Of a DNA stretch of 64,000 nt, positions 1,289-62,648 are shown in pieces; positions within the stretch are counted from its first letter, which is position 1, and every line of letters starts with the position of its first letter. Below the pieces are notes generated by a model, which did no database searches, had not been told where the DNA came from, and saw nothing but the letters and a program-made list of their open reading frames with translations. The stretch is from an uncultured Desulfospira sp. (GTDB lineage Bacteria; Desulfobacterota; Desulfobacteria; Desulfobacterales; Desulfobacteraceae), in assembly GCA_963663165.1 (NCBI GenBank), contig OY760175.1, positions 5,504,001 through 5,568,000 on the forward strand, read 5' to 3'. Made by a program: the position numbers and the translations under genes.

Positions 1289-1310
1289 ACGTAAAAACTG
1301 GAGGCGCGGC

Positions 1311-39488: not shown

Positions 39489-39892
39489 ATTTGTTGTGTT
39501 CAATTATTCTTCGTATTCTATTTTTTTGGCGTTATATCTTTTAGATCCTGTTCTTTTTTATCATCCAAAACGACATGCACTATCTCACCATCAAGTTCAC
39601 CAAAATTTATAGCTTTCATATCGACTTGCCTTATACGTCGATTGTGCTGTGTGTGGTAATTCAATGTCAAGTCTTTAAGGTTCCAGGCAGTGCTGACGCA
39701 TGAATAAAAAAAGGTTGGCTTTAGTCGATCTAACCACTCCCTTTGGGGGGAGATCCAGCCTTTTTTAATTCAAAAAGGCAGTCCTTCAGACACTGACTAT
39801 GGCCGAAACGAAAGACGGTCCTTCGGTCCGAACATAGCGTTCCCACCTCTCTGCTTGGGAGAGTGTTTTCGATTACCCGTCCGTCGTTGCCG

Positions 39893-43631: not shown

Positions 43632-43700
43632 TGCTGATGGGCGCACCAGCTATTGCCGTCATTTGCTTTCCCATCCTCAAAGATTCTCCAAACTCTCTCA
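43632..43700 (-). other. Continuation of group II intron copy B beyond the IS21, with stub of the intron-encoded ORF
   Basis: GGAAAGCAAATGACGGCAATAGCTGGTGCGCCC (MTAIAGAP, ATG at 43662); no RT or domain V follows. Confidence 0.55.
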
Positions 43701-43825
43701 CCCGGATGGCCACCCAAAATCCCCCACTTATGGCCACCTCAAAATCCCCCACCTGAGCGTTTAAAAAATCAGGCGTAATCGCTGATAATCAGGAAATTCA
43801 GGAAAAACGGCGACAGAACGTTTAA

Positions 43826-45205: not shown

Positions 45206-45254
45206 TAAATTCCCATGTATTACCCGATCAATCTAATCATGGGAGTTGGAAAGG

Positions 45255-47897
45255 ATGAACGTTTTGAAACCAGAAAAACAGGCAGCAATCAGCACATTAC
45301 TCAACAAGAATGTAAGCCAGCGAGAAATCAGCAGGAAAACTGGTATTGACCGGAAGACAGTACGCCGATACATACGTCAAAACGCTCCCGGATCAATCCA
45401 AATTCCCCCACCGGAGGCCACATCAAAATCCCCCACCCCGGCCACCGATCAGATTGGAAAGCCCCCACCCCGGCCACCGGCTGATTCAGTGGATTCAGGC
45501 CCCATACCGTTTCACGCAAGATCCGCCTGTGAGCCTCACCGGAAATGGATTGAAGACCAGGTTCGACTGGGCAGAAACGCCATGGCTATCTATCAGGATC
45601 TGGTGGAGCAGTTCAGTTTTGAACATAAGTACAACAGCGTTAAACGCTTTGTCCGCAAGTTAAAGCGCAAAGACCCCAAGCAGTTTGACCGACTGGAGTT
45701 TAGGCCTGGAGAAGAAGCCCAGGTGGATTATGGCCAAGGCGCCTTAACCAAGGGGCCAAATGGCAAATACAAACGTCCCCGGTTATTTGTGATGACTTTG
45801 AAATATTCAGGGCGCTCCTTTCGCAAGGTAGTTTGGAAATCCAGTCAAGAAACCTGGGCCAAGCTTCATGAAGAGGCGTTCCGCTATTTCGGTGGTTGCC
45901 CTGAATACGTGGTTTTAGACAATTTAAAAGAGGGTGTTATCAAGCCGGATATCTATGAGCCTGAGTTGAACCCGGTTTATGCAGCTGTACTGGCTCACTA
46001 CGGTGTAGTAGCAGACCCGGCCAGGGTACGAGATCCCGACCGCAAGGGCACGGTGGAGAATGCCGTTCAGCATACCCAGAATACAGCCCTGAAAGGAAAG
46101 CAGTTTGACACCATTGAAGCCCAGAATGAATGGTTGATGCACTGGGAAGAAAGATGGGCATCAACCCGGATACACGGCCGGAAGAAACGGCAGGTGGAGG
46201 AGATGTTCCAGGAGGAAAAGCCCCATTTGTCCCTCCCGCCGTTGAAAGGGTTTGAATATTTTCGCCAGGAGACCCGCACAGTGTATGATGACGGAACTAT
46301 CCAGGTAGACTCATGCTATTATTCCGCCTTGCCGGCGCCGTTGCACCAGGAGGTCATTGTCCGGATTTATGAAACACAGATTGACATCATCAATCCCCGG
46401 ACCATGGAAAAAATCCGCACCCATATCAAAGGCGACCGGCCCGGAGCGGTTAAGATGGAGGAGGAAGACCGGATCTTCAATCCATCCCGGCAAACAACCA
46501 GCCTTTTGAATAAAGCCGAAAGTATCGGTCCTGCGACGAGACAGCTATGCGAACTGATTTTCAAGGAAAAGGGCCGCCCCGGACAGCGCCGGATGCAGGG
46601 CATTGTCAATCTTGCCCGGAAACATGAGGCCGGCAGTATTGAGGCGGCGGCCAAAACAGCCATAGAGAAGGGATTGCGCAGTTACAAATCCTTTTGCCGG
46701 CTGGTTGAACACCAGAAATCATTTACAGATACCAGGCCACAAGAGGGTATCAGCCAGGAGCATGAACTGATCCGGCCGTCAAATGATTACGGTCAGTTTT
46801 TCGACACGTATGCTGCCGGTAACCAACCCGTTATCTCAAAACAGGACCTGCCAAATGTATGGCAAAGTGCCGACTGGTTGAAGGTGATGGCCGTTTTCGG
46901 CCTTGAGCCCCAAAAGAACAAAAAAGACGAAATCTGGATTCAATCCCCTTTTACCGGAGAACAGAACGCCTCTTTGCATGTGCATCTGGGGCAGAATGTC
47001 TACAAGGACTTCAGCAGCGGCAAAGGCGGTGGAATCCTCAATTTCTGCCAGGATCTGCTGGCCCGCAAAGGGCGGGTGATGAACTGCTACCAAGTGGCGG
47101 AATGGATGATCAGCGAAGGCATTTCAAGCCTGAACAAACCCGTGGCCGTTGAGCCCAAACCAACTCCAGAAAAGAATCAGGCCAACCCGCCGGTGAGTAT
47201 TGATCTGCAACCGTTTCTGGAAATCGTTCATCCGGAACTTGAAAACCGGGGGATTTCCAATAAGGCCTGCCGATACCTGGGATGCGGATATCTGCCCAAG
47301 AGAGCCACAGGCAAAAGTTCTCCATTAAACGGAAGAGTGGTCTTTCAGGTGCGAGGGATCAGTCCGGAACTAACCCCTGTCATTCTAAGCCATGTCGGCC
47401 GTGCATTGACAGACCATCAGGCTGACCTGGATGGCAGATACTGGGGCTTTCCTTTCTCCAAAAAGCTGGAAATCTACAACCAGGACAAACTGCTGCTGGA
47501 CCCAAACGCCAGGGATCAGGTGGAACGATATGGCTTGACCCTTGTGGAGGGCTTTTTTGATGTGGCAGCCCTGGTGTCCGCTGACTGCTTGAATGCAGGT
47601 GCTCTCATGGGCGCACATATGGCAGTGGAACAGGTTCTCCAACTCAGGTTTCTGGCATCACATATGGATATAAACAAGGTCAACCTTTTCCTGGACCGGG
47701 ATGAGGCTGGAAGTAAAGGGACCCGGGCTGCGGCATCACTACTTACGCACCATGGGTTTACTGTAAATGTGTTTGACTGGAACCACCGGTTCATCCGGCC
47801 CGGATGTCCACCTGCAGGGATCAAGCCCGATATAAAAGATCCGGCCGACATGTCTGAAACCCAGCTCAAATACTTAAGAAAACAAGGGATGATTTAA
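45255..47897 (+). CDS. istA: IS21 transposase IstA fused to a C-terminal DnaG-like primase region
   Basis: PGEEAQVDYG, LDNLKEGV, KGTVE; then SPF..E..SL..YKDFSSGKGG, LVEGFFD, FLDRDEAG, KDPAD. Confidence 0.9.
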   Translation: MNVLKPEKQAAISTLLNKNVSQREISRKTGIDRKTVRRYIRQNAPGSIQIPPPEATSKSPTPATDQIGKPPPRPPADSVDSGPIPFHARSACEPHRKWIEDQVRLGRNAMAIYQDLVEQFSFEHKYNSVKRFVRKLKRKDPKQFDRLEFRPGEEAQVDYGQGALTKGPNGKYKRPRLFVMTLKYSGRSFRKVVWKSSQETWAKLHEEAFRYFGGCPEYVVLDNLKEGVIKPDIYEPELNPVYAAVLAHYGVVADPARVRDPDRKGTVENAVQHTQNTALKGKQFDTIEAQNEWLMHWEERWASTRIHGRKKRQVEEMFQEEKPHLSLPPLKGFEYFRQETRTVYDDGTIQVDSCYYSALPAPLHQEVIVRIYETQIDIINPRTMEKIRTHIKGDRPGAVKMEEEDRIFNPSRQTTSLLNKAESIGPATRQLCELIFKEKGRPGQRRMQGIVNLARKHEAGSIEAAAKTAIEKGLRSYKSFCRLVEHQKSFTDTRPQEGISQEHELIRPSNDYGQFFDTYAAGNQPVISKQDLPNVWQSADWLKVMAVFGLEPQKNKKDEIWIQSPFTGEQNASLHVHLGQNVYKDFSSGKGGGILNFCQDLLARKGRVMNCYQVAEWMISEGISSLNKPVAVEPKPTPEKNQANPPVSIDLQPFLEIVHPELENRGISNKACRYLGCGYLPKRATGKSSPLNGRVVFQVRGISPELTPVILSHVGRALTDHQADLDGRYWGFPFSKKLEIYNQDKLLLDPNARDQVERYGLTLVEGFFDVAALVSADCLNAGALMGAHMAVEQVLQLRFLASHMDINKVNLFLDRDEAGSKGTRAAASLLTHHGFTVNVFDWNHRFIRPGCPPAGIKPDIKDPADMSETQLKYLRKQGMI

Positions 47898-48098
47898 GGG
47901 ATGGCCAGCTTTTAAAAGTGTAACGCCTATCCCCTATATTCATAACGAAATAATGTAACGACCAGATACCCCGCTGCCACACCCTGCTAAAAAATTATAA
48001 AAATCATACCCCGCATGCCGACCCCGCCGGTAGACCCCGCCGCTGACTTATTCAAAATTTGCTACATATAATCTCCGTGATTCGAATCTTGGAGAAAA

Positions 48099-48449
48099 AT
48101 GATGGCAAAGAATTCTCGTGGAAAACGCCCTTGCTCTATTTGCCGAAAATGGTTTGCTCCTGATGTAAGACAAAAAGGCCGACAGAGAACATGCAGTCCG
48201 GTTTGCCAAAATGAGCTTCATCGAAGGCAATGTGAAAACTGGAACAGGAAAAACAAAGCGGTCTCCATAAATAATTACCTGGCAAAGAAAATTGAAAAGG
48301 CTCAAAACCTTCAAACATCCGGGAAATTGCCTGTTTTGCCGCTGGAAGTTATTGAAACAGAATACGGTATCAAGCCGGCAATTATCGTCGAATATCTGGT
48401 TGCCCAGGTTATCTGTCATACCAAAGAAAAAATTCGAGAATTCCCATAA
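48099..48449 (+). CDS. Small Cys-rich putative zinc-finger protein
   Basis: GGAG RBS; CSICRKWF..QRTCSPVC + basic helix. Confidence 0.7.
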   Translation: MMAKNSRGKRPCSICRKWFAPDVRQKGRQRTCSPVCQNELHRRQCENWNRKNKAVSINNYLAKKIEKAQNLQTSGKLPVLPLEVIETEYGIKPAIIVEYLVAQVICHTKEKIREFP

Positions 48450-49090
48450 ACACCTCTGACTAATCGAATATTGATTTCAAGAGACAAGGTTATGTTAACC
48501 TCTTGTAATATTAAGATATACAAACAGAGTAATCGAATTTTGATTCTAAGAGACATCATGCGCATAAGTTGTTGATAATATATATAGATACAAACAGAGT
48601 AATCAGTATTCCAGTTCAAGAGGCAACTGACAGCCGACCCTGGCCGGTGATATAAAAAGGCATCTGAAATTCTAAAAATAAGGAGATGTCTCATGGCAAA
48701 CAGGTTTTCATCCCGGGAATTATTTGAACTGAGGAACAATATCCCTGTGGATATGCTGATCAGGGATCATTTTGTTATCGCCGGTGATCAAGGTCACCAC
48801 CTTTGCCGGCAACGAACCGTCCCCACCTGTGATATATTGACTTGTCAGGGCTTTTCGCAGGTGTAATATTTGAGGGAAGATACCATTCTCATTTGTATCG
48901 ATAATTTGCAACACAATCAGCTAAAACAAGATATATTAATGGAATAGCGCCATAGCAATCAATTTGGTTGCAGTAAAGCACCTGCGGTTGGAAGAACACG
49001 CTCACCAACAGGCGTCAATCCCGATTTTGGAAGTAAAAAAGCCGGGTTTTATACGAGGACGTATAAAACCCGGCAGATGTGAAGAGATGG

Positions 49091-49879
49091 TTATTGGGGT
49101 ATGGACTGGGGATTAGTAGTGTTCGTTGTGTTGGGACCTTCCGTTCGATAACTGAGTCCGTCCCGGATATTAATGATGTGAACATTGTGCATCAATCGAT
49201 CGATAATGGCATGAGTTACAACCGGATCTCCCAGAGTCGTCCCCCAATCCTCAAGACTGATTGAAGATGTGGCAATAAAGGCGGTATCGTCCTGGCAGAC
49301 GCTGATCAAATCCAGCAGCAGGCTGGGATATTCCGGCTTTGTGCGGATACCGCCCACATTATCTATGATCAGAAGATCAAAACGGCTTAAGCCGGCGACC
49401 ACCTCATCGGTGGATTCGTCAGCCAATGACGTATACAGCATGGCCAGAAGTTTTTGCAGGGAAAAAAATCGAACCTTATAACCCGCACGGCAGGCCTGGT
49501 CGCCAAGGGCTGAGGCAATATGAGTTTTGCCCGTGCCGGTTTTCCCAAAAATAAGCAGCGGCTGCTTTCGATCCACAAAGGATAGCTCCATCAGATCTTT
49601 GAGGTGCTCTACATTCAGGCTTGGCTGGAAGTTAAAATCAAAGTTATCAAAGGTCATGTTTCTGGGGAAATCCGCTGTTTTTAGCCGCTTTTCAAGGGAT
49701 CGGTGCTTTCTTGCCTTCATCTGTACGTCCACGATGTCGGCCAGGAACGCCAAATGACCGGATTGATTTTTCTGCGCCTTGGCAAGGGCCTGCTCCAGAT
49801 ATTGGGCCATATCCTTGAGATAAAGCTTGCGCAGTTTCTTTTTAACCTGGTCGCTTAAGTTTTCATTCATCCTTGCCAT
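49091..49879 (-). CDS. istB: IS21 helper ATPase IstB
   Basis: TFDNFDFNFQP, GKTGTGKTH, LLIIDN, AIIDRLMH, G.SYR. Confidence 0.92.
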   Translation of the reverse strand: MARMNENLSDQVKKKLRKLYLKDMAQYLEQALAKAQKNQSGHLAFLADIVDVQMKARKHRSLEKRLKTADFPRNMTFDNFDFNFQPSLNVEHLKDLMELSFVDRKQPLLIFGKTGTGKTHIASALGDQACRAGYKVRFFSLQKLLAMLYTSLADESTDEVVAGLSRFDLLIIDNVGGIRTKPEYPSLLLDLISVCQDDTAFIATSSISLEDWGTTLGDPVVTHAIIDRLMHNVHIINIRDGLSYRTEGPNTTNTTNPQSIPQ

Positions 49880-51365
49880 CCATTGTTTTTCTGTTAATCA
49901 GGTGGTCATACCTTTGTGGGTTATCCTGCTCCACTGAACAGGATTTCAAATAGCTCCGGGTGTTGTTGGGCAGACCTTTTCCGGCTTTTGTTTTGTTTGA
50001 AGCTTTAATGTTTTTCCCCTGGATGATACGCAGGACGGCATCAGCACTAAATGAGTCAAACCGCGTGGCATGAGCTAATGCCCCTGAGACCACATCCGCA
50101 CCATAGCGGTCGGCATATTTGAGGATACGGCCCATATGGTACCCGGCAGCGCTTTTCCGGGTTTCTTTCAATCCGTTATAATAGACCTGCGCCACCTCAC
50201 CCAATCTCAAAAAGGCATCTTTGAGCAATTGACTCTGGCCTGTCATCTTCCTGTACAGGGCTTCATGTTCAGGCAACACCTGCCTGTCTTCTTGAGTGTA
50301 AACATGCCGGCAATCCATCGTTTCATCACACCATATTTCAATGTGATCACGGAACAAACGGACCTGGACATAACGGCCTATCAGTTCAGGATTGGCAGAG
50401 TATCGTTTTTTGTCGATGGTGACACAAAAATCAACGTTAACAAGTCGACGTACTTCCTTAAAAAATTGATCCGTTTTATTCCATGGCACAGGCTTTAACA
50501 GACTTTTTTCCCTTGCCAGGCGATCCACAGGCCTTTCCCGGGTGGTACCGTGGATACGGACATTGGCTGTGTTCGCCCGCCAGGCATCGGCCTTGTTATT
50601 GAGATCCTCAAGATCAATAAATTCTTTGCCTCTAAGGAAATTGTCTTCAATATACCGGAACGGCCGCTCTACCTTGCCGTGTCGTTCCTTTTTGCCGGGT
50701 AGAAGGATGACGATCTCAAAGTCATACTCCTGGGCAAACCGTTTAAATACCGGATTGATCCAAACGGTTCCGGGGCCCGTGTGCCTGCCCACCGTGGTCA
50801 TATTGTCATAGGTGATTTTGTGGGGAACCGCCCCGATCTCGTCAAACGCCTCTTCATGCAACCGGATCACTGATTCTATAGTTTCATCAAAAAAGTGACG
50901 TATAAATATCCAACGACTGAAGCACAATACAAAAGATCCGGTATGCACCACCACGCGTTGTCCACCCATGTACACACTATGAGGACTCCAGTCCATCTGC
51001 CCCTCATCTCCAGGGGCATGATCAATTGGAGGCCTGGGCACCTTCAAGCCTTTGGGCCGGATTATTCTGATATACTCCTTGAGGATGGAGTATCCGCCCG
51101 TGTACCCCAACAACGTGATCTCTTCCAACACCCGAACCCCGCTGAGATGTTTTTCTTTTACAAGGTAACCGATTTTGGCCTTGTAAGGATCAAGTTTGCT
51201 TTTGCGGGGACTGGTTTGAGGCGCATTAATAACATTGTTGCAGCCCAATGCCCTGCGCACTGCCTTGCGGCTGTGCCCGGTCTGTTTTGCTGTCTGACGG
51301 ATGGATGCTGTGCGCCCAAAGACTTTACGAATACGTTCCTGTTCCTTTTCACTCAACCGGCTCAT
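49863..51365 (-). CDS. istA: IS21 transposase IstA
   Basis: SKLDPYK, GYTGGYSILK, PGDEGQMDW, YDNM, GKVER, HGTTRERP. Confidence 0.93.
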   Translation of the reverse strand: MSRLSEKEQERIRKVFGRTASIRQTAKQTGHSRKAVRRALGCNNVINAPQTSPRKSKLDPYKAKIGYLVKEKHLSGVRVLEEITLLGYTGGYSILKEYIRIIRPKGLKVPRPPIDHAPGDEGQMDWSPHSVYMGGQRVVVHTGSFVLCFSRWIFIRHFFDETIESVIRLHEEAFDEIGAVPHKITYDNMTTVGRHTGPGTVWINPVFKRFAQEYDFEIVILLPGKKERHGKVERPFRYIEDNFLRGKEFIDLEDLNNKADAWRANTANVRIHGTTRERPVDRLAREKSLLKPVPWNKTDQFFKEVRRLVNVDFCVTIDKKRYSANPELIGRYVQVRLFRDHIEIWCDETMDCRHVYTQEDRQVLPEHEALYRKMTGQSQLLKDAFLRLGEVAQVYYNGLKETRKSAAGYHMGRILKYADRYGADVVSGALAHATRFDSFSADAVLRIIQGKNIKASNKTKAGKGLPNNTRSYLKSCSVEQDNPQRYDHLINRKTMDGKDE

Positions 51366-52185
51366 GGTGCCCTCCTATCAACTCATTGAGCCGTTTCATC
51401 CGGGCACCGGCCCGCCCTATAAAGTCTTTAAGGGCGCAGACCTTGGAACCATTGATCGTGCCGCTGCCAATGCAGTTGTTCAGCTTGGACATTTTTGAAA
51501 GAATGGCATCAATAATCAAATAATAATTTTCCTTGTCCCGGCTTACGGACTCCAGCGCTTGCCTGGGAGATTCAAGCAGGTGGCGCCTGGCTCCGGGATC
51601 ACTGGTCTTGCACCACAGGTCCACCAGACGGTTCACCTCCCGGGTTTTAAGGTTGTGTTTTTGAATACAAAGAGAAAAATCGGCCTGGGTTGCAGGCTGC
51701 AACCGCGCCAGTGACGGACCGACCCCGGCAGGGAGCAGCCCAAGTTTGATATCGTGGACAATTTCCGGGGTCAGGCTGCGGATCATGGAAAGCCGTCGGC
51801 AAACCCAGCTTTTATGCCGCTCAAGGAGTATCGCCGCTTCAACCTGATTGAGCCCTTCTATTTCTACAAGTTCCCAGACCACCAGGGCCTCCATGATCGT
51901 GGAAAACCCATCCGGGCGGTTCAGAAGGTAGAGCAATGCCTTGGCTTCTGCAGCACTTTTTTTCAACACAGCCACTTTAAGCGTCTTCATGCCAAGAAGG
52001 CCTGCACAGCGATGCCGCTTGAAACCGTCTATTAAAATATGGCAACCTCCTTGCTCAACCGCAACAACAGCCGTTAATTGGCCATGCTTGACTAATGAAG
52101 CCGCCATCTTTTCCTGGGCACCGGCGTGGACCGGCCGCAGGAATCCCAGACGTAAATCCAATTGGTCCGGACGCAGGTTAATCAT
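51349..52185 (-). CDS. ParB N-terminal domain + HTH protein
   Basis: SLVKHGQLTAV..LIDGFKR, Q.EAA.LLERHKSWVCRRL. Confidence 0.85.
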   Translation of the reverse strand: MINLRPDQLDLRLGFLRPVHAGAQEKMAASLVKHGQLTAVVAVEQGGCHILIDGFKRHRCAGLLGMKTLKVAVLKKSAAEAKALLYLLNRPDGFSTIMEALVVWELVEIEGLNQVEAAILLERHKSWVCRRLSMIRSLTPEIVHDIKLGLLPAGVGPSLARLQPATQADFSLCIQKHNLKTREVNRLVDLWCKTSDPGARRHLLESPRQALESVSRDKENYYLIIDAILSKMSKLNNCIGSGTINGSKVCALKDFIGRAGARMKRLNELIGGHHEPVE

Positions 52186-52600
52186 TTGGACCTCCGGCTA
52201 TATTGAGGCTTTTTTGAAAAATCTCCCCGATTGAGATAAGGCCACTGCCGCCGGTGGGTTGCTTAGGCGCCTTGGACGTCGGTGCTGCAACATTTTTTTT
52301 GGGAAGGGAAAGCACTTGAAACAGTCGGCCGTCAAAGGCTATGAGATCTTTATCAATGAGCCCGTTCCTGGCCTGGATATATTCGTCCAGGCGGATGGCC
52401 GTCAATGAACAGATTTTATCATAGCCGTAATAAGACATTCCCTGACGATCTGCCACCATCACCAGAAAAAGGTACAGCACAAGCTCCTGGTGGTTCAGGC
52501 TGCCCCAATACCCCTGGCGGATAAACCGGTGGCTTATCCATGCGAAACTGCCGTTAATTTTTCTAATTCGATGGTCCTTCAACGGTTCCTTGGTAATCAT
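52178..52600 (-). CDS. Small wHTH-like accessory protein, homolog of 1311-1721
   Basis: GGAGGG RBS; FAWISHRF, LYLFLVMVADRQGMSYYGYDKIC, DLIAFDG..QVLSLP. Confidence 0.82.
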   Translation of the reverse strand: MITKEPLKDHRIRKINGSFAWISHRFIRQGYWGSLNHQELVLYLFLVMVADRQGMSYYGYDKICSLTAIRLDEYIQARNGLIDKDLIAFDGRLFQVLSLPKKNVAAPTSKAPKQPTGGSGLISIGEIFQKSLNIAGGPND

Positions 52601-53033
52601 TTTTACCCTCCTTGGAAATATAATGATGAAAATTGTCGCCTGAATACCGTCTGCCATATCCCCGCCGGGGGAATTGATCTACAATCAGACCTTTTCTTCC
52701 GCAAAAACAGCAGCATGGATGGGAAGACGGAGGCGTTACCCGAAGACTATCATTGGATTTGGAGGGTGTTGAAGTGTCATCATCCACGGTTTTTTGAGAA
52801 TTTCTTAATCTCCGCTCTTTTTCCTGCCGACGATGGGCTAACTTACCTTTTTCAGTTTGTCGATATTTCTTCTGGGCGTTACGGTGAGCTTCTCTTTGAG
52901 CAGTTTCCCGACAGGATTCACAGCAATAAATCTGTCCACGCCAGCAACTGTGGCAGATATAAAAAATGCTGCCGCATCGTTTACACTGGATTTCTTTTAA
53001 TAAAACGATCTCCACATTTTCCGTTCTTGCCAT
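52563..53033 (-). CDS. Cys-rich putative zinc-binding protein, homolog of 902-1288
   Basis: CKRC..CHSCWRGQIYCCESC, YRQTEKGK, CCFCG..DQFPRRGYG. Confidence 0.82.
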   Translation of the reverse strand: MARTENVEIVLLKEIQCKRCGSIFYICHSCWRGQIYCCESCRETAQREAHRNAQKKYRQTEKGKLAHRRQEKERRLRNSQKTVDDDTSTPSKSNDSLRVTPPSSHPCCCFCGRKGLIVDQFPRRGYGRRYSGDNFHHYISKEGKNDYQGTVEGPSN

Positions 53034-53061
53034 AAAACGGAAGCCGTGATTATATGAAGAT

Positions 53062-53142
53062 GTTGGGTAGCTTCCGTATTTTATATGGATGTCTGCTTTT
53101 TGAAGGCTCGAAGCGGCCTACTTCGAGCCTTCCTTATTTTTC
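53062..53142 (+). ncRNA. Candidate small RNA divergent from the IS21-ParB leader gene
   Basis: TTGCCA (53027)-N17-TTATAT promoter-like; hairpin GAAGGCTCGAAG-CGGCCTA-CTTCGAGCCTTC then T-rich tail. Confidence 0.5.
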
Positions 53143-53592
53143 AAATCCATCCAAGAAACAAAACCAAATTCAAAGAAAAAAAGGAAGAAAATATATTTTT
53201 AAAATATGGGATGAAGAAGAGACAAAGTAAAAAGGATGGAGGCTTTGTTACCGGCTAAAGGGGTGGCCTGCTTCATCGCCATAGGTGGGGACGGTTACGA
53301 CCGGCGGTAACAATCATTTACAGATTCCATCCAAGATCAGGGATGGCTACTTTCGTTTTCTATGCCCTTTGTGCAATGAATTTCAAACCGCTGTAAATCC
53401 AGCCACGAACCTGGCCAGGTGCTTCAGATGCGAAAAGAATTTTAATACCATCGACCTTGTCATGAAAATCAAGGGTTATGGCTTCCGGGATAGTGTTTTG
53501 TTTTTGAAACAAATAAATACGGCCCCCCAGGTTCAGACCGCAAAATTGACGGCTCTTGCTGCTATGGTCGGCAGACCCATGCCGGCAGGGCA

Positions 53593-54156
53593 GTGAATAT
53601 GGAACGGTTGCTTGAGCTTGAAACCCTGATTGGTCGCAACCAGGAATGTTTTTACAAAATCGGCCGGGCCTTGAAGGAAATTCGAGATAACCGTTTGTAC
53701 AAACAGGCTTTGTTTGAGTCATTTGAAACATATACCAGGCAGCGATGGGATATGGGCAAGGCTTATGCCTACCGCCTGATCAGAGCCTATGAAGTGATCT
53801 ACAATTTGTCGCCAATTGGCGACAAGCTACCTGCCAACGAATCCCAGGTCCGTCCCCTGACTCAAATGGACTCCATAGAACAACGCCGTATCTGGAGGGA
53901 GATTATAAACAGCGGCATGGAACTGACCGCACAAAATATCAAAAAATTTATTGAGGCCCGGAAAACGGCTCCGGCAAGTAGACCGGATCTGACAAATAAA
54001 ATTTCAAATGAATACATGGCTGTTGTAAAGGCAATGCTTGAGCAGGTCCGTGTGGCACAACATGATCATTGGCAGCAGACCTCCCGCCAAGCCGCATTGT
54101 TGTGGCACCGGGTCATATACGAAAAGATCATATCAAAGGGGGCAGATAATGGATGA
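53593..54156 (+). CDS. Helical accessory protein of element X
   Basis: IGRALKEIRD.RLY..FE.Y...W......YRLI, LPANESQVRPL; overlaps neighbours. Confidence 0.75.
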   Translation: MNMERLLELETLIGRNQECFYKIGRALKEIRDNRLYKQALFESFETYTRQRWDMGKAYAYRLIRAYEVIYNLSPIGDKLPANESQVRPLTQMDSIEQRRIWREIINSGMELTAQNIKKFIEARKTAPASRPDLTNKISNEYMAVVKAMLEQVRVAQHDHWQQTSRQAALLWHRVIYEKIISKGADNG

Positions 54157-55813
54157 CCTAAGCATTGACGACCGCTTCCACTTACTGCTGCACAAAAAAA
54201 TCATGAACAAAACTGGATCTGCCAAGAGAAGATCCAAAAAATATTACAAGGACCAGTACAAAAAAAACGGGATTATCCCGCCTCCCCTTTTACTGGTTGA
54301 AAAAGGAATTATGGATGGCCGCAAGTGCAGCGGGCGGCCCAGAGTCATAGACGAACAAACCCAAAGGCGGTTTATTGAAATGGTCAAGGCGTCATGCGAC
54401 CCCTCATCCCAGGGGTTCATTTTTATCACCCGGAGAGCCAGGACCATTAAAAATTACCACTGCTGGCTTGAGGAAGAGCTGGGGAAAAAAATCAGTCTCC
54501 CTGCACTTTGGCGATGCGCCAAAAGGGAGAATCTCAAATTTTACCTGGAAAAAGAGGACGATCAGGAGCCGTCACCGGCACGTTATACCTTCAAATCGGT
54601 TACGGTGTTTACCTTGATCCAGGTTGACGGTTGCAAGTTCCAATATTTAAGAATCAGAGATGAACATGGCAACTGGCAGAAACCACGGGTAATTGAAATA
54701 TTCGATACCGGCTCCAGGAAACTGTTTATTATGGAATTCTATTTTACCGAAAGCAATCTGAATTCTGTGGATCTTTTTACCCGTTTTTTGTTGTGCACAC
54801 CTTTTCCTTTGATAACAATCGGTATCAGGCCTGATCGGGCAAAGGGATTTTTAAATCTCAAGCGTCCCATTAATGCGATTAACCTTGCGCATTCTACGCC
54901 GGGCGGTTTTTATTTGGCACCGGATTTTTCAAGGGCGCATTCCCCCAAAGATAAGGCGCATCTGGAATCTTCACACCGAAGCCTGCATAATTTTGAAATA
55001 CGAATTATCAAAGCGTTTGAGAGCAGGATTGTGAAAACCGTTACCGAATATGACTTCAAGCGGGGAAGAAAGGAAAAAGTTACTGTAACCCTTCTTGATA
55101 TCACCCTTGATGAATTGAGGAACAGCACTGTGCTCAGCCAATACCGCAACGAACACAATCATACACAACATTATTTTACCGAAGACGGCGTAGTCAGTGC
55201 CTGGGTGCCGGCACAAAAGTTTGATGATTTTTTATCAAATCAGACAGACACCCTGAATTTTACCCCGGAGCAGGTTCAGGAATATATGAAATACGGTTAC
55301 AGGAAAATCAAAGCCACGGTATCCAAAAATAGAACCATCCGCCATGACAAAAGGGATTATTATGTGACCAGTGGTGCAGACCGGTTCAGCAGGCATAAAA
55401 GTACACCGGTAAAAATATCCAGATACAGGGACAAACTTTTTATCTTTGAGCCCAGTGAAGACGGCATCCTGATAGGCGAAGCCATTGCAAAAAAGCCGTT
55501 TGACAGCCCGCCGTCTCCAGCGACCGCTCCTGTACCCGACGAACTCGACACCATTATCGCTCTTTTGGAAAAGCACAATATGGCCGTTGACCGGCCTATT
55601 TTAATCGAAGTTTACCATAAAGGCCTCACCTTGTCCCTGGCGGAGCAAGTGCTTCACCATAATCAATCAAGGTACGCAGATTACATGAAAAAAATGAACC
55701 AGCCTGAGGAACGTAAAAATCAAGCCTTATTTAATGCTTTTATGCTTGATTGCCAAAAATCGTTAAATACGAATCAGGTGGCCACTTATGCATCCCACGG
55801 AGATATGCCATGA
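54149..55813 (+). CDS. Divergent DDE integrase/transposase of element X
   Basis: SGRPR, IQVDGC, EIFDTGSR, IRPD, PKDKAHLESSH. Confidence 0.75.
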   Translation: MDDLSIDDRFHLLLHKKIMNKTGSAKRRSKKYYKDQYKKNGIIPPPLLLVEKGIMDGRKCSGRPRVIDEQTQRRFIEMVKASCDPSSQGFIFITRRARTIKNYHCWLEEELGKKISLPALWRCAKRENLKFYLEKEDDQEPSPARYTFKSVTVFTLIQVDGCKFQYLRIRDEHGNWQKPRVIEIFDTGSRKLFIMEFYFTESNLNSVDLFTRFLLCTPFPLITIGIRPDRAKGFLNLKRPINAINLAHSTPGGFYLAPDFSRAHSPKDKAHLESSHRSLHNFEIRIIKAFESRIVKTVTEYDFKRGRKEKVTVTLLDITLDELRNSTVLSQYRNEHNHTQHYFTEDGVVSAWVPAQKFDDFLSNQTDTLNFTPEQVQEYMKYGYRKIKATVSKNRTIRHDKRDYYVTSGADRFSRHKSTPVKISRYRDKLFIFEPSEDGILIGEAIAKKPFDSPPSPATAPVPDELDTIIALLEKHNMAVDRPILIEVYHKGLTLSLAEQVLHHNQSRYADYMKKMNQPEERKNQALFNAFMLDCQKSLNTNQVATYASHGDMP

Positions 55814-56457
55814 AAGAGGATTTTATCAGTGATAAACGAAGGGTCTCATACCTGTCTGCTACTTATAACAGGATATACAGGGGTCAAAGCGTACTCATTG
55901 AAGGGGATTTTGGCGCAGGCAAAACTCGTTTTTTAAGACTGCTGCGGCCTAAAAAGCTCCATGCCGTATGGGTCGAGTCTCTGTTCAACATCCATGAAAC
56001 CCTGGCATCCATACTTAAAGAACTGAATTATGAGACCTCCGCCACTTACCGCCGGACTCCCCAGTACCTGAAAACGATCTGCAACCTATCCAATTGTTTT
56101 ATCATCATAGATGAAGCCAACGACCTGGACTCCCGGGTTTGGCCATATCTCAAACGAATTATTGATGCCGGTGTCCCCATCGTATTTGCAGGGCTCCCCA
56201 AGGTCAGAACCTATTTGAGCCGGAATCATCCCGATATACTCAGCCGGCTCAAAACTCTGATTTTATATCCCATAGAGGTCGAGGACTTCATTGAAAAATA
56301 CAAAGATATCCAGCATGAAGCAGTTGAACAGATATATATGGCCGTCAAAGGCGACATGAGAAAATTTAAAGAAATCTGTACAGACTGTCAGGACAGGGCA
56401 AAGGAGTTGAACCACAACTTTGTTGATATCAATCTTGCCCTGGAATTTATATCCTGA
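55810..56457 (+). CDS. AAA ATPase (TnsC/MuB-like); last 5 codons displaced to 60667-60684
   Basis: GDFGAGKT, IIIDEA, IVFAG, ILSR; original end ..EFISDLPPQ* reconstructs across the insertion. Confidence 0.85.
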   Translation: MKEDFISDKRRVSYLSATYNRIYRGQSVLIEGDFGAGKTRFLRLLRPKKLHAVWVESLFNIHETLASILKELNYETSATYRRTPQYLKTICNLSNCFIIIDEANDLDSRVWPYLKRIIDAGVPIVFAGLPKVRTYLSRNHPDILSRLKTLILYPIEVEDFIEKYKDIQHEAVEQIYMAVKGDMRKFKEICTDCQDRAKELNHNFVDINLALEFIS

Positions 56458-56592
56458 GAATGGTCACAAAAAATCATGGAAAAATTGAAGATAATTTGCA
56501 AGATATGTCAGGTTTGAGGCAGAAGTTCCCCTGTTTATCTCGCAAATAATCGTGAAACTCCTGCCTCCCCACCCAATAACAGGGCAGGAGAT

Positions 56593-57180
56593 ATGCTATC
56601 AGAAGTTCTGAAAAACGAAAGTTTTTTTTGGGATCTATACAAAATAGATCTGGCAACAGCCGAACGTTATAGACAGATGAAGTGCCCCCACTGCCAGGGA
56701 CCGTTGTATTATGCCAATTATCCGCGCAAACCCAGGGGGGAGCCTGAAGGGTTGTCTGAAGAATGTTTTTTACAATTCAGTTTATGTTGCGGAAGGGAAG
56801 GCTGTCGACGTCGTTTGATCCCGCCAACCTGCCGTTTCCTTGGTAAAAACATTTACTGGTATGCGGCCATTCTGACGATTGTGTCCGACTGGCAGAACCA
56901 ATCTGTAGGTATCACGATGTCCAGGTTTGCTGAAACAATCGGTATCTCCCGCAACACCCTTAGCCGCTGGGTCAGCTTATTCAAAGAAATATTTCCAACA
57001 AGCTCTCAATGGAAGAAAATCCGGGGCCGAGTACCTGCAAGCGTAAAAAATGATCGTCTTCCAGCAAGTTTGGTCAACTTCTATCTGCATCAACAGGCGT
57101 CCATCAAAAAAACGTTGATCTCCTGTTTGTCATTCTTGTCTCAAGGCAGTGAAATATCACAAAAAATAAGGGCCGGGTAA
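56593..57180 (+). CDS. Cys-rich zinc-ribbon + HTH protein
   Basis: CPHCQGPL..ANYPRKPRG, FSLCCG..GCRRR..P, GISRNTLSRW. Confidence 0.75.
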   Translation: MLSEVLKNESFFWDLYKIDLATAERYRQMKCPHCQGPLYYANYPRKPRGEPEGLSEECFLQFSLCCGREGCRRRLIPPTCRFLGKNIYWYAAILTIVSDWQNQSVGITMSRFAETIGISRNTLSRWVSLFKEIFPTSSQWKKIRGRVPASVKNDRLPASLVNFYLHQQASIKKTLISCLSFLSQGSEISQKIRAG

Positions 57181-57295
57181 TCTCACGCAGAAGATGGGCG
57201 TGGCCTTGGGCGCTCAACTGTTCTATCAAAGGGGCCGGGATTTTTATCAGCATTTCGCTGAAAATTTTAACTCAAAATTGAAAGGACCCCGGCCT

Positions 57296-58741
57296 ATGAA
57301 CAGTAAAAACCAAAGTCCGGTTGATAACTGGGCTTTGTTTCGCTTCTCAGTCGTTGGCGGTTTGCTGGCAAATCCGCCGGCCAAAGGTGAGCTGCGCAAG
57401 GAACTGGAAAAGCTTTCCTATCAGATTTACACCCATCCCATCACGAACGAATCAACGGTATTTCATTTTTCAACTATTGAAAGCTGGTATTACAAGGCAA
57501 AAAATGCCCAGGACCCCATTATTGCTTTAGGGCGGAAAGTTCGTTCTGACTATGGCGGTTCAATTGTATTCACACCTGAACTGATCCGGATGCTGGGCAG
57601 ACAATACCGGACTTATCCGAACTGGAGCTACAAACTGCACGCAGATAATTTCGCAGCAGAACTCCAGGAAAAGGAGGCTTCAGTATCGGTACCATCCTAT
57701 GCCAGTGTCCGGCGGCGGATGATCGAAAGGGGGTGGACCAGGAAGCCCTCAGCAAAGAAAAAACAGACAGCGGGTATGAAAATTGCCGCAAAGCGGTTCG
57801 AAAGCCATGAAATCCGAGGATACGAAGCAGAATATGTTCACAGCCTGTGGCATCTGGATTTTCATGAAGGCAGTCTGCGGGTGGTGGATAACAACGGTAA
57901 CTGGTATACGCCCAAAGCCTTATGTATTCTTGACGACCATTCCCGCCTGTGCTGCCACATCCAATGGTATTCAGGAGAAACCACCCAGGATTTGATTCAT
58001 GGATTGACCCAGGCATTTTTCAAAAGGGGGCTTCCCAGGGCACTGATGACGGACAACGGATCTGCCATGACCTCCCATGAGTTTTGCAACGGTCTTAAAA
58101 AAACAGGGATACTTCATGAAACGACACTGCCCTACAGCCCTTATCAAAACGGTAAGCAGGAAGCCTTTTGGGGAACCCTTGAAGGCAGATTGATGGCCAT
58201 GCTGACCCGGGTGGACCCTCTGACACTGGAATATCTCAATCACAGCAGTCAGGCCTGGGTCGAGATGGAATATAACAAAACCAGGCATAGTGACATCGGC
58301 ACATCTCCTGTTCAACGCATGCTTGAAGGCAAAGATGTTTCCCGGCCGGCACCGGATGAAGAGCAACTGAGGTTCGCCTTTACAGTCTGCGAATCCAGAA
58401 ATCAGCGAAAATCTGACGGTACCGTGTCCATCAACGGGGTAAGATTTGAGATCCCTTCCCGGTTTCACCATATCCCTCGGTTACATGTCTGCTTTGCCAA
58501 TTGGGATAAATCCATGGCCTGGCTCATGGACCAGAGAACCGGCAAACAGATTGCGCAGATCTACCCCCAGGACAAAATCAAAAATGCTTCAGGAAAACGA
58601 AAGATCAAGTCGAGACCTGAGCATACCATTCTACCGGATGAAACATTGAAAGAATCCGAGCCTGCATTATTAAGAAAACTGATGGCCGAGTATGCCCAAA
58701 GCGGCATGCCTCCAGCCTATCTTCCCAAAGGAGAATCATGA
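57296..58741 (+). CDS. DDE (rve) transposase
   Basis: RKVRSD, LWHLDF, LDDHSR, MTDNGS, QNGKQE; ATG 57296 after GAAAGGA. Confidence 0.9.
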   Translation: MNSKNQSPVDNWALFRFSVVGGLLANPPAKGELRKELEKLSYQIYTHPITNESTVFHFSTIESWYYKAKNAQDPIIALGRKVRSDYGGSIVFTPELIRMLGRQYRTYPNWSYKLHADNFAAELQEKEASVSVPSYASVRRRMIERGWTRKPSAKKKQTAGMKIAAKRFESHEIRGYEAEYVHSLWHLDFHEGSLRVVDNNGNWYTPKALCILDDHSRLCCHIQWYSGETTQDLIHGLTQAFFKRGLPRALMTDNGSAMTSHEFCNGLKKTGILHETTLPYSPYQNGKQEAFWGTLEGRLMAMLTRVDPLTLEYLNHSSQAWVEMEYNKTRHSDIGTSPVQRMLEGKDVSRPAPDEEQLRFAFTVCESRNQRKSDGTVSINGVRFEIPSRFHHIPRLHVCFANWDKSMAWLMDQRTGKQIAQIYPQDKIKNASGKRKIKSRPEHTILPDETLKESEPALLRKLMAEYAQSGMPPAYLPKGES

Positions 58742-59565
58742 ACAACAAACAGCTTCTGGCTTATTACGGCCTTAAATGGAACCCTTTTTTTCCTAATATC
58801 CCCGTGGAAGCCTTATGGCATCCGCCATTGATGAACAGTTTTATTTTTCGTCTTGAGAATATGACCCTGAACGGGGGCTTTGCTTTGATCAGCGGGGACC
58901 CCGGCCTTGGCAAATCCAAGGCGTTGCAGATGATTGCCCAAAAGTTCGGTAAACTTGACGAGGTAGTTGTCGGGGTAATGGAACGTCCCCAAAGCAGTGT
59001 CGGAGACTTTTACCGGGAAATGGGAGTTTTGTTTGGTGTCAATTTGAGCCCTGCCAACCGGTACGGCGGGTTCAAGGATCTTCGGGAGCGCTGGAAAAGT
59101 CATGTAAAAACCACCTTGTTCCGGCCCATCCTGCTCATAGATGAGGCCCAGGAGATGCTGACCGGATGCTTAAATGAACTGCGTTTGTTGAACAGCGCGG
59201 ACTTTGACTCCCAAAACCTGTTGACCACCGTGATTTGCGGCGATGACCGGCTCCCGGAACGGTTCAGATCAAGATCCCTGGTATCGCTGGGAAGCCGGAT
59301 GCAGTTCCGGCTGACGCTGCTTCCCTATGTCCGGGATGACCTGCTGGATTACATGGATCACAGCCTGAACCAGGCCGGCGCCCCGCACTTAATGACGAAA
59401 ACTCTGATCAGGACCCTTGCAGACCATTGCGCCGGCAACCTGCGGGTTCTTAACAATATGGCCGCAGACCTGCTGACTGCGGGGATTGAAAAAGAACTCA
59501 ATCAATTGGACGAAAAGCTTTTTATGGAAGTCTATTCCAGACAGCCGCCCAATAAAAAATCATAG
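58738..59565 (+). CDS. ExeA-family AAA ATPase
   Basis: YGLKWNPF, GDPGLGKS, LLIDEAQ, GNLRVLNN. Confidence 0.9.
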   Translation: MNNKQLLAYYGLKWNPFFPNIPVEALWHPPLMNSFIFRLENMTLNGGFALISGDPGLGKSKALQMIAQKFGKLDEVVVGVMERPQSSVGDFYREMGVLFGVNLSPANRYGGFKDLRERWKSHVKTTLFRPILLIDEAQEMLTGCLNELRLLNSADFDSQNLLTTVICGDDRLPERFRSRSLVSLGSRMQFRLTLLPYVRDDLLDYMDHSLNQAGAPHLMTKTLIRTLADHCAGNLRVLNNMAADLLTAGIEKELNQLDEKLFMEVYSRQPPNKKS

Positions 59566-59574
59566 GAGAACAAT

Positions 59575-59757
59575 ATGGGTATTTATGATGATCCGGACAT
59601 GAAACTGGAAGAAATCACACAGGAATTGGAACATTTTATCCTGGATATGGTCCTTGCCGGACTTGAAAGCTTGAATATGGAATATCGGGCCTTCAGGCGA
59701 TTCCAGAAACAAAGGCTCACGGAAAAGAACCGTCATAAAGAACACGAGCCGTTTTGA
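59575..59757 (+). CDS. Small hypothetical protein
   Basis: AGGAG RBS, 60 aa, operonic position. Confidence 0.5.
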   Translation: MGIYDDPDMKLEEITQELEHFILDMVLAGLESLNMEYRAFRRFQKQRLTEKNRHKEHEPF

Positions 59758-59794
59758 ACGTACGCCCGGACTCCAAAGGTCCGGGCCTGCCTCA

Positions 59795-60583
59795 ATGGAA
59801 AAAATACTTTGGAAAATCGGCAATTATTTTAAGCACCGCTTCAGCCTGGCAGTTCTTGATGAAATTAAGGGCCGGTGGCCCGTTCTCCCCTCTTGTAAAA
59901 ACATCCCTTATCTTAAAGCTGAAAATGCCGGAGGAAGGCACATCCTGATCAGACCTGATCCTGTTATTCAGCCTTATTATTTTCTTGCCGACGATTTAAA
60001 CATTGACCTGCTTATCCGGCATCATCAATCCATATCAAACCGCTTTAAACCAGGCAGGATGGTTATAGAAACATCTCCCGGCAATTATCAAATTTGGATT
60101 CACAGTGACCGTCCGTTAAGCCTTCCCGAAAAAAAGTATTGGTTGGAAAACATGCACAGTGATCCCGGCGCCGACCCGAAAAACAGGTGGGGCAGATGCC
60201 CCGGGTTCAGGAACAGAAAAGCAAAACACAGAACGCCTTCAGGACAATACCCTTTGGCAAAGCTATTATGGGTGGACTGGAAATGCCAGGCTATTGTCCC
60301 TGAAATAGAATTATCCTCCCAACCTCAAGAAGTCTTTTCCCATCAACCCCGGGGGGGAGTGTGCCATAACGGTAATATTTCCCGCTCCCTCTATGATAAG
60401 GGTGACGAATCTGCCACTGATTTTGCATATGCTCTGGCCCTCTATAGAAGAGGTTTCTCACGAATGGAAATTTACAATCGCATTATCAATGAAAGGCAGG
60501 ATTGGATTAATCATGCGGGTGAACGAAAAAAAACACAGTATCTGATCAGGACATTACAGAAAGCTGAAAAAATTATCAGTTAA
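59795..60583 (+). CDS. RepB-type DNA primase domain protein
   Basis: LADD, IETSPGNYQIW, DPGA..RWGRCPGFRNRK, C-terminal DESATDFAYA. Confidence 0.8.
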   Translation: MEKILWKIGNYFKHRFSLAVLDEIKGRWPVLPSCKNIPYLKAENAGGRHILIRPDPVIQPYYFLADDLNIDLLIRHHQSISNRFKPGRMVIETSPGNYQIWIHSDRPLSLPEKKYWLENMHSDPGADPKNRWGRCPGFRNRKAKHRTPSGQYPLAKLLWVDWKCQAIVPEIELSSQPQEVFSHQPRGGVCHNGNISRSLYDKGDESATDFAYALALYRRGFSRMEIYNRIINERQDWINHAGERKKTQYLIRTLQKAEKIIS

Positions 60584-60995
60584 AATCGGGCTCTCTTGGC
60601 CTCCGGGAAAGCCCTTATTTACCATGAAACGTTGTCCATGAATTATCGTGATTGCTCTCAATATCCGACCTTCCTCCCCAGTAATCCTTATCACAATTTA
60701 TCTGCACTAACAGGCCACCTTGTGTTAGCACCAAGGGCGGCCTTGTTGTATCTGTTCATTATATAATGGTGCCGATGCCTGCTTGATCTATTGTTAATGT
60801 CTTGAAACCACAGACCATTTTTGAGTTCTTTTTGGACCGTTACATTATTTTGCAATTATTCTTTTGATGACGATTTCACTCAACACTTTTAAATCACAAT
60901 AAAAACATTGATTTTTATCGGTAGCATCAAGCCTCAACACCGTTACAGTATTTGAAGCTCGTCAAAGGGATGAAAAAAGAAAAAAAGGAGGCATC

Positions 60996-61775
60996 ATGAG
61001 TATGACGACCACGGAACTTGAAAAGCACTTAAAAGAACTCAGGCTGGGCGGTATGCAGGCTACCCTGGAAAGCCGGGCATTACAGGCCAATCAGTCCAAT
61101 GCAAGCCTTGTCGAAGGGCTGTCATGGCTGGTTCAGGATGAACTGGATCATCGTTCTTCAAATCTTAAACAACGCAGATTCAAGGCATCCGGCCTGGATG
61201 AACTCCAGACGCTGACGGATTTTGACTGGGGGTTCAATCCAAAACTTCCTAAAAAGGAAATTTATGAACTGGTGACCGCCAAGTTCATAAAAAATGGAGA
61301 GCATGCCCTTTTAATCGGTGCGCCGGGTACTGGAAAGAGCCGGATTGCCAAAACTATTGCCCATGCATCTGTTCAATTGTTCCAGAAAACCTTGTACCGG
61401 GAGGCCCATGTGTTTTTTGAAGACATGTTCGAAGCAGAACAAACCCATAATCAGAAAAAGATCTTCAAACTGTTTACACAGGCGGATCTTTTGGTTATTG
61501 ATGATTTGTTCCTTCGTAAAAGAATGCCCAACGATGCGGCCGATTACCTGCTGGATATCATCATCAACCGATATTCAAAAAGGAAGAGTACGGTAATAAC
61601 GTCAAACAGACCCCTTGAAGACTGGGGCTTGCTGCTCAAAGACAATGCCGCATCATCGGCCATATTGGATCGGCTGCTCCACCATGGTCACCTGCTGAAG
61701 TTCGAAGGGAAAAGCTACCGTCTCAAGGAAGCCGCTAAACGGCTCTCTGCGCCACAAAATAAGAACGAGGGATGA
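60996..61775 (+). CDS. istB: IS21 helper ATPase IstB of the outer element
   Basis: LKELRLGGM, TLTDFDW.FNP, GAPGTGKS, LLVIDD, TSNRP..W, AILDRLLHH, GKSYR. Confidence 0.95.
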   Translation: MSMTTTELEKHLKELRLGGMQATLESRALQANQSNASLVEGLSWLVQDELDHRSSNLKQRRFKASGLDELQTLTDFDWGFNPKLPKKEIYELVTAKFIKNGEHALLIGAPGTGKSRIAKTIAHASVQLFQKTLYREAHVFFEDMFEAEQTHNQKKIFKLFTQADLLVIDDLFLRKRMPNDAADYLLDIIINRYSKRKSTVITSNRPLEDWGLLLKDNAASSAILDRLLHHGHLLKFEGKSYRLKEAAKRLSAPQNKNEG

Positions 61776-61884
61776 AAAAAGGAAAAAATCGCAGATTTTA
61801 AGAGCATAACTTAGATCTCAATATTCTGTCGCTGGGGGATTTTGACCCGGCCACAGGTGGGGGATTTTAAAGTGGCCATCCGGG

Positions 61885-62519
61885 CTCACAAAGAAACACC
61901 TGCCCGGGTGTGTCTGTAGTCACACCCGCCGGACGTCAGCTCCCTTTCGGGCCGGGTAATGTCGATAGTCAATAGATCCATCTCAATCCGTATCCACTTC
62001 GTTACAAAATGGCATTTGCTTCTTCCTGCATCTTACTCCCGCACCTCCATCAATGTGCCTTGCGGTTTCACCTGCCGAATGATCCCGGCGAAGATACGGG
62101 GTTTCCACGTTCCACACTATTGCCGATTAGTGGATGACTTAGGCCTGCCCTCTGCACCGGCGGCGCAACATCTCACGCGGCAGTTAGGAAACCTGCAGCC
62201 TGACCGCTCACCTTTTGGTCCAAGCTTACCAGCCTCTTTAGCTTGTTCTCCCTGACGGTACTTACGGAACATTCAATTAATTTGACCATATCATCCAAAC
62301 CCTTGCCCTCACCCGGATTGAGGCTTCCAGGAGGGTATCCGCCTCACGGCTTCCACCCCTTCCGCAGCTGCGGAATTCGGTACGTTGTCGGTTGGGCTTC
62401 ACACCGTTGCCGGATGCACCGGTAACTGCATGCCACCTAGGGTACCGGCAGGAGAATGCCGGGTTTGGTCAGGACCGACTGGCCCGCCAAACAGCCAATA
62501 ATGCGACCTCGTGTCGCAC
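61885..62519 (-). mobile_element. Group II intron 5' region (copy B), interrupted by the outer IS21
   Basis: Starts GTGCGACACGAGGTCGC at 62519; duplicate of copy A plus further structured sequence. Confidence 0.82.
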
Positions 62520-62648
62520 GCCAACAGGGAGCTCAGCCGCCCGGAGATTAGAACCGAGGACTTCCCAAAAATTAAATCCTTTTCGAAAACCAAGGGCTTT
62601 CAAAAAAGCCGATAGCTCTCCGGGTCGGCCTGCAGCGTTTTGTTCGGC
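62520..62648 (-). other. attC site after vapC
   Basis: Minus strand GCCGAAC-AAAACGCTGCAGGCCGACCCGGAG...CTCCGGGCGGCTGAGCTCCCT-GTTGGC; central loop similar to attC 39363-39488. Confidence 0.85.

Follow-up and report, generated by a model that had tools for sequence, protein, structure and literature searches.

A RepB'-type primase gene and a predicted priming site in a nested Tn6049-family transposon

Element Y and its primase

We analysed a window of 64,000 nucleotides from the genome of an uncultured Desulfospira sp. (contig OY760175.1), in which several transposons are inserted into one another, and concentrated on the one at 56455-60660, element Y, and on the primase gene it carries. The nest was resolved by self-search of the whole genome and domains in the window were called with Pfam and NCBIfam profiles; the nested arrangement around Y that a first-pass annotation had proposed was borne out. 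Y has imperfect 29-bp terminal inverted repeats, a 6-bp target duplication at the window copy and, in order, orf1, an rve DDE transposase gene, an AAA_22/ExeA-like ATPase gene, a 60-amino-acid (aa) open reading frame (ORF) and a gene with both RepB_primase domains, N and C. As the same annotation had held, the RepB-type primase gene lies inside the inverted repeats, its stop codon 77 bp within the right end. The genome holds 11 copies of Y, which are simple insertions with target duplications of 3-6 bp.

By sequence, Y belongs to the Tn6049 family: it has a homologous DDE transposase, an ExeA/gspA-like ATPase and orf1 upstream, together with short TG...CA repeats and a short duplication, and it groups within the Tn6049-family tree. 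orf1 is a core gene of the family, lying upstream of the transposase in nearly all of the 78 genome loci that reach that far. Short acidic ORFs occupy the position of orf4, the 60-aa ORF of Y, in many relatives that have no primase.

The Y primase matches the Pfam RepB_primase N and C profiles (E values of 1.5e-15 and 1.7e-8) and RSF1010 RepB' (E 3.5e-12), including the helix-bundle domain. Y residues D66, D67, D123 and R134 correspond to RSF1010 D77, D78, D134 and R145, which the consulted passages of PMC8567376 name as three catalytic aspartates and an arginine, and these residues are invariant in 120 of 120 RepB' homologues among the matches listed (578 found). By simple counting over three pairs, with the transposase of a 97% variant excluded as out of frame, the ratio of non-synonymous to synonymous substitution rates (dN/dS) is 0.10-0.12 for the primase versus 0.08-0.09 for the ATPase and transposase of Y.

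A hairpin that immediately precedes the primase start codon has a counterpart at the same place in 15 of the 20 in-element RepB' genes examined, some of which are near-identical, and its pairing is kept while the stem sequence varies. This hairpin may control translation or act as a second cis site; we rejected it as a priming site because neither strand has a conserved GTG 3' of it. At one further locus (L196:3421-5688), a 756-aa ORF in which an rve fragment and a RepB' primase are fused in frame probably arose by internal deletion within a Y-like element.

The slot behind the ATPase and its cis site

To survey the slot that holds the primase gene in Y, transposase loci were gathered from genomes (78), metagenomes (80) and plasmids (3), giving 161. 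Of these, 17 with a missing or cut ATPase were dropped, as were 22 that either lacked both a detected right end and a slot match or had a transposase segment of insufficient length. The remaining 122 loci formed 86 clusters at 90%, spread over many phyla. Their slots hold an AAA_25 RepA-like helicase (43 elements), a RepB' primase (12), a CHC2+TOPRIM DnaG-like protein (7), a finger alone (1) or only a short ORF (23). Replication genes occupy the slot in 63 of 86 elements, or in 27 of 48 if a detected right end is required, the first figure being biased in that positives needed no detected end and negatives mostly did. In multi-copy cases the slot gene lies within the element ends. The slot helicase finds its best Protein Data Bank match in RSF1010 RepA (E 9.9e-9) and is followed by a CHC2 gene in 8 of 43 elements, and the DnaG-like proteins have the TOPRIM Glu in 7 of 7 and a matched DxD in 6 of 7. 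Among the 33 leftover ORFs scanned (of 129), no other passenger family was seen except an inserted IS91-type transposase, along with weak coiled-coil matches.

Helicase and RepB' genes never occur in the same element (0 of 86). On the FastTree phylogeny, 16 changes of slot state, in either direction, are needed, and sister elements in different states are joined with support of 97-100 (L032 and L035; L217 and L224; L228 beside the RepB' clade). These comparisons of sequence and gene order argue that genes for the archaeo-eukaryotic primase (AEP)-type RepB', the TOPRIM-type DnaG-like protein and the RepA-like helicase replace one another in one slot.

Several loci add detail. Three elements counted as empty (L242, L262 and L278) contain a conserved 119-121-aa ORF without a Pfam match. 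At L074:9553-11448, a second, distantly related ExeA-type ATPase precedes a helicase of the same type encoded on the opposite strand; several families may thus have the helicase cassette in common. A conserved inverted repeat lies directly 3' of the helicase gene in 14 of the 16 helicase-type elements examined; at L040:8300-8330 and at other helicase-type loci, conserved inverted hexamer repeats right after this gene form a candidate origin, which may resemble satellite origins.

The RepB' genes contain a cis signal of their own. Across 16 genes, the codons for primase residues 176-190 hardly vary, with a synonymous conservation of 0.92-0.97 versus 0.43-0.75 elsewhere. The stretch was compared with ssiA by way of another IncQ1 plasmid and the ssiA numbering given in the consulted passages of PMC8567376. 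A profile made from the transposon genes alone picks one place in the IncQ1 plasmid, with a hairpin at 7-27 and GTG at 31-33, which fits that numbering. A site is present in 11 of 12 RepB' elements, in 0 of 74 other elements and nowhere in a shuffled genome, and a strict pattern matches 13 of 301 genomes, its reversed control none. Support independent of the training set comes from L213, where a good site lies 3' of the primase stop codon, and from L189, a non-DDE element with two sites on opposite strands (4101 and 4956), whereas the transposons have one. The L189 element also carries a DUF5906 helicase-like gene, HNH and RepB', and looks like a true small replicon. Measured against ssiA and ssiB, layout and conservation fit, but Y has a weak hairpin and a spacing unlike that of ssiA. 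We describe 60334-60365 as an ssiA-like predicted priming site, on the top strand only.

Three further matches of the site profile in the genome turned out to be identical copies of a 373-bp element with Y-type ends, 5-bp target duplications, no long ORF and the ssiA-like site in the same orientation as in Y (C1 2726987-2727359, 5266572-5266944 and 4409221-4409593; L329, L319 and L324). Full-length relatives that keep the site were found in 2 of 150 family genomes (G615 and G648), with a partial one in a third. Retention of the site in an element without genes would be expected if it is required in cis.

We regard Y as a recently mobile Tn6049-family transposon and favour, with modest confidence, the reading that its RepB' primase and site prime the second strand on a single-stranded transposition copy. 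A single site on one strand would also suit a transferred strand, and primase and site could instead serve horizontal spread, the excised circle being mobilised by a helper or replicating briefly and the site priming the complementary strand after transfer. The nearest non-transposon homologues lie in conjugative regions, the Y family spans many phyla, two neighbouring elements (B and X, below) have ParB-like ORFs, and passages of PMC5704250 and PMC3942029 describe DDE elements mobilised without a relaxase of their own and DDE integrative and conjugative elements (ICEs) replicating as circles. Against such a role, neither a relaxase nor a RepC-like initiator was found for Y among the profile matches of the window proteins (oriT was not searched for), and the contig depth of Y tracks its chromosomal copy count without excess, a weak indicator given that depth is no copy number. 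On this evidence a role in spread, rather than in transposition itself, seems unlikely.

The nest around Y: elements A, X and B

Y interrupts element X (47902-60964), which is also broken by element B; element A (43701-61884) is broken in turn by X and by an ISAzo13-type element (Table 1). Every nested element has uninterrupted copies elsewhere in the genome, A as a 3732-bp copy and X as an intact 4.3-kb copy. A is present in 2 copies, B in 5, and X in 3 near-identical copies plus 8 at 77-85%. The insertion place of A is a many-copy non-coding repeat (window 38906-39490, 43453-43699 and 61885-62645), which is reminiscent of group II intron remnants in its minus-strand orientation and in its occurrence in clusters with cassette-like repeats. 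Elsewhere, a DruA-like (PF14236) gene is paired with a transposase-like gene in two multi-copy families (window 39688-42464; L337 and L338).

Table 1 Features of element Y and of the elements around it (window coordinates)
Feature	Position	Strand	Remarks
Y left terminal inverted repeat	56455-56483	+	
Y orf1	56593-57180	+	195 aa, Cys-rich, weak helix-turn-helix (HTH) match below cut-off
Y DDE transposase	57194-58741	+	47% identical to that of Tn6049
Y ExeA-like AAA_22 ATPase	58738-59565	+	
Y orf4	59575-59757	+	60-aa acidic ORF, no Pfam match
Hairpin	59764-59786	+	just 5' of primase start codon
RepB'-type (AEP) DNA primase gene	59795-60583	+	
ssiA-like predicted priming site	60334-60365	+	in primase linker-coding region; pyrimidine 5' part, C-run/G-run stem, GTG 60359-60361
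Y right terminal inverted repeat	60632-60660	-	
A left end	43701-43755	+	4-bp target duplication
ISAzo13-type insertion in A left part	43823-45206	+	
A IstA with primase part	45246-47897	+	IstA + zinc-free finger-like domain + DnaG-type TOPRIM primase core (E768, D817, D819)
A IstB ATPase	60996-61775	+	
A right end	61830-61884	-	
X left part	47902-48772	+	left end; 116-aa Cys-rich ORF 48099-48449; first 27 codons of CHC2 gene from 48693
X CHC2 finger gene, remainder	53313-53596	+	split by B
X 187-aa ORF, 553-aa predicted DDE transposase, AAA_22 ATPase	53593-56454	+	
X right end	60661-60964	+	
B (IS21: IstA, IstB)	48773-53312	-	also ParB-like, winged-HTH-like and Cys-rich ORFs; 5 copies

Element A is an IS21-type element, with IstA and IstB genes in tandem between terminal repeats. 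Its 883-aa IstA scores above the cut-off of NF033546 and contains Toprim domains, while its IstB falls marginally short (199.9 versus 200); both IstA and IstB of B pass their cut-offs, for IstA that of NCBIfam. The DnaG-like fusion announced for the outer IS21 stands as regards the TOPRIM core, but the finger-like part has no zinc cysteines. Among the matches listed, the fusion is full length in most of 120 homologues (58-100% identity), the TOPRIM Glu and DxD are retained by all but one, which has a gap (119 of 120), and the zinc-binding cysteines of a CHC2 finger are replaced across all 120. The primase part has a dN/dS of 0.14 versus 0.10. Judged by their sequences, both primases, RepB' of Y and the DnaG type of A, look functional and appear to be under purifying selection (dN/dS 0.10-0.14) close to that on the transposase and ATPase genes.

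The CHC2 finger reported for X is present (E 3.7e-6), in a gene split here by B, but neither the window copy nor the intact copies have a catalytic primase (TOPRIM) core. The domain content indicates that this lone finger is not a primase, and X was rejected as a third primase element. Its DDE assignment rests on a reading of motifs and a weak match to the Y transposase, with no Pfam DDE match, and its 187-aa ORF weakly resembles partition proteins. The domain scan found no primase in B. A 159-aa ORF of B gave an unusable single-sequence fold (pLDDT 44) and a weak HTH_36 lead from an atlas, and B was not called a replication element. The ParB-like ORFs of X and B share no pairwise similarity. 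Trio elements with a tyrosine recombinase (window 902-4608; L339, L346 and L347) carry accessory ORFs of the X and B types, namely Cys-rich, winged-HTH-like and CHC2 finger ORFs, which suggests a pool of accessory ORFs common to unrelated mobile elements.

The annotation had inferred that DDE+AAA pairs repeatedly recruit unrelated primase parts. Evidence for repeated recruitment of unrelated replication-initiation proteins does exist, and is stronger within the Y family, given the exchange of three folds in one slot, the purifying selection and the cis sites, than across the three nested elements, where X has only a finger, B has no primase and most IS21 elements sampled are unfused. The tie to DDE+AAA pairs is loosened by the X-type finger in a tyrosine-recombinase trio element. 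A general rule that all DDE+AAA pairs recruit primases was rejected, most sampled IS21 elements having no fusion (unfused passenger primases fall outside that census).

Searches starting from the primase give a similar picture. Of the 251 genomes searched in the class, 15 have a PF16793 match; in the 14 other than ours it lies directly after an rve or AAA_22 gene in 9, in other settings in 4 (helicase plus HNH, single-stranded DNA-binding protein, type IV secretion system and tyrosine integrase) and at a contig edge in 1, counts that are not independent because some genomes recur among the searches and are kin. The primase clade of Y also appears in another DDE+ExeA family, whose similarity to Y is no more than 23-31%. 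Viral contigs gave 35 pattern matches and no transposase relatives.

Such settings raise the question of whether primase-plus-site units are passengers acquired from plasmids, satellites and integrative elements, which benefit themselves or the host and do nothing for the transposon. Units of this kind do occur in non-DDE elements, finger, Cys-rich and winged-HTH ORFs are common to X, B and the trio elements, and gene loss is common, with 10 changes assigned to the empty state. A passenger role, however, would hardly explain why the only families detected in the slot are replication-initiation genes, of three unrelated folds, or why selection on the primase is as strong as on the core genes. 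Moreover, none of 14 ATPase-less multi-copy transposase elements scanned in this genome has a primase match, and the gene-less 373-bp element keeps the site in three genomes. We consider a mere passenger role improbable.

Proposed second-strand priming and known systems

For Y, our preferred reading of second-strand priming can be laid out in steps. The transposase would join the ends of Y on one strand by copy-out, and the top strand would be released or exposed as single-stranded DNA. RepB' would then prime once at its site, on the top strand only, and a host polymerase would complete a double-stranded circle, whose insertion the ATPase would help. In relatives the same job may be done by a DnaG-like primase or by a RepA-like helicase plus hairpin, or be left to the host, so the slot would be a booster rather than essential. 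The 373-bp element would depend on transposase and primase supplied in trans, and the IstA-DnaG fusion of A may be an independent solution to the same step. DnaG is said to be needed for the circles of IS911. In copy-out elements, replication turns a figure-eight into a circle, a step usually ascribed to host machinery in the passages of PMC7780238 consulted, and IS21 is listed among the circle-forming families in the part consulted of a preprint on the IS-excision enhancer (IEE). We favour self-priming because one site on one strand together with a primase is what single-to-double-strand conversion needs, and because of figure-eight replication and the IS21 circles.

No end-to-end circle junction was seen in the genome, the fetched loci or the assembled contigs of 8 runs, although contigs drop rare forms. 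At most 5 of these samples contained most or parts of the stretch, and X1 and X7 had only pieces of relatives and carry no information on habitat. Skip joints in the contigs are no sign of excision, since matching uninterrupted copies exist elsewhere in the genome. A DDE transposase with an AAA ATPase is the textbook layout of Mu and Tn7. The missing junctions would fit a Mu-like replicative strand transfer, in which slot proteins set up forks or fill gaps at the strand-transfer intermediate and no free circle arises, as would the prevalence of the helicase (43 of 86), followed as it is by a conserved inverted repeat. Y, by contrast, has no resolvase gene and makes simple insertions, with duplications of 3-6 bp as opposed to the fixed 5 bp of Mu and Tn7. 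A Mu-like route has, in our view, a slim chance, if anything slimmer than that of a passenger role.

Beyond the missing junctions, several observations weigh against second-strand priming by the slot gene. A slot gene is absent in 23 of 86 elements, including Tn6049 and a relative with 12 copies from one genome, and as these are plainly mobile, the gene is dispensable for mobility. The commonest slot gene, the helicase, is not a primase, and the slot tree was made with FastTree only. The hairpin of the site is weak in Y, at -3.1 kcal/mol compared with -8.7 in the plasmid, and most of the elements scored as positive had served to train the profile. For the plasmid site the score falls from 25.2 under the first profile to 17.4 under the second, short of the cut-off of 22 applied elsewhere, and four matches (L290, L295, L303 and L304) have no primase nearby. 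The right end of the 373-bp element is ~70 bp away from the site, a distance also seen in L213, and proximity could thus have spared the site in one internal deletion. Primase-plus-site units akin to that of Y were also encountered in a helicase element and next to a tyrosine integrase. A finger related to that of X occurs in one of three tyrosine-recombinase trio elements of the same genome and is hence not specific to DDE+AAA pairs. Finally, among the matches listed, ~5 of 81 IS21-bearing genomes have IS21 frames of at least 750 aa (27 were not listed, and at most 11 were scored per genome).

More tentatively, and at somewhat less than even chances, Y may stand for a widespread class of compact DDE+ATPase transposons that prime themselves through an exchangeable replication-start cassette: an AEP primase whose gene conceals its priming site, a DnaG-like primase, or a helicase with a hairpin origin. 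Miniature elements would keep the site and borrow the enzyme, and IS21 elements would have arrived there by fusion. Self-priming would explain how a small family crossed many phyla. A primase of its own and a defined 32-base site make the figure-eight replication step testable by point mutations, and a site-specific primase, a short signal and a natural 373-bp miniature together offer a compact experimental system.

Our search of the literature, outside which subscription journals and ISfinder lay, found no description of primase or helicase cassettes in Tn6049-type elements or of an IstA-TOPRIM fusion. Casposons likewise link a polymerase to a transposon, but use Cas1 and a polymerase of family B. 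In the consulted part of an AEP survey (PMC5862659), RepB' is listed alongside relaxases, and transposons are not named in connection with it. IEE, according to the same part of the preprint, is an AEP primase-polymerase linked to copy-out elements that promotes excision and is not described inside an IS. TnGBS ICEs, MTnSag1 and tISCpe8 share with Y a DDE transposase and have circular forms, with plasmid-like replication in TnGBS (passages of PMC3942029 and PMC5704250); their transposases are of other families, whereas Y, at 4.2 kb, has no conjugation genes and carries a primase and priming site rather than a replicase. Within the IS21 family, A shares terminal repeats and duplications and represents a minority form with IstA fused to a DnaG-type primase core, and B differs by three extra ORFs.

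The RSF1010 module of IncQ plasmids (RepB', ssiA/ssiB and RepA) agrees with Y in catalytic residues and helix bundle and is similar in the layout of the site. An IncQ replicon has RepA, RepB' and RepC, iterons and two opposed ssi sites in its origin, whereas Y has RepB' with one site inside the primase gene, is integrated with flanking target duplications, and yielded no RepC or iterons. A close relative in design is Tn6049 itself, known from Cupriavidus metallidurans CH34 and Pseudomonas aeruginosa plasmid pHS87a, whose transposase is 47% identical to that of Y over 90% of the length. Both are multi-copy elements with orf1, transposase, gspA/ExeA-like ATPase and a short ORF in the same order between short inverted repeats starting with TG. 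The consulted passages report a 4-bp duplication for Tn6049 (PMC2864759 and PMC4739549) and 12 copies in CH34 (PMC2864759), and contain no mechanism of transposition (both papers). At 3.5 kb, Tn6049 has only the short ORF in its slot, whereas Y additionally has the RepB' primase, the upstream hairpin and the ssiA-like site.

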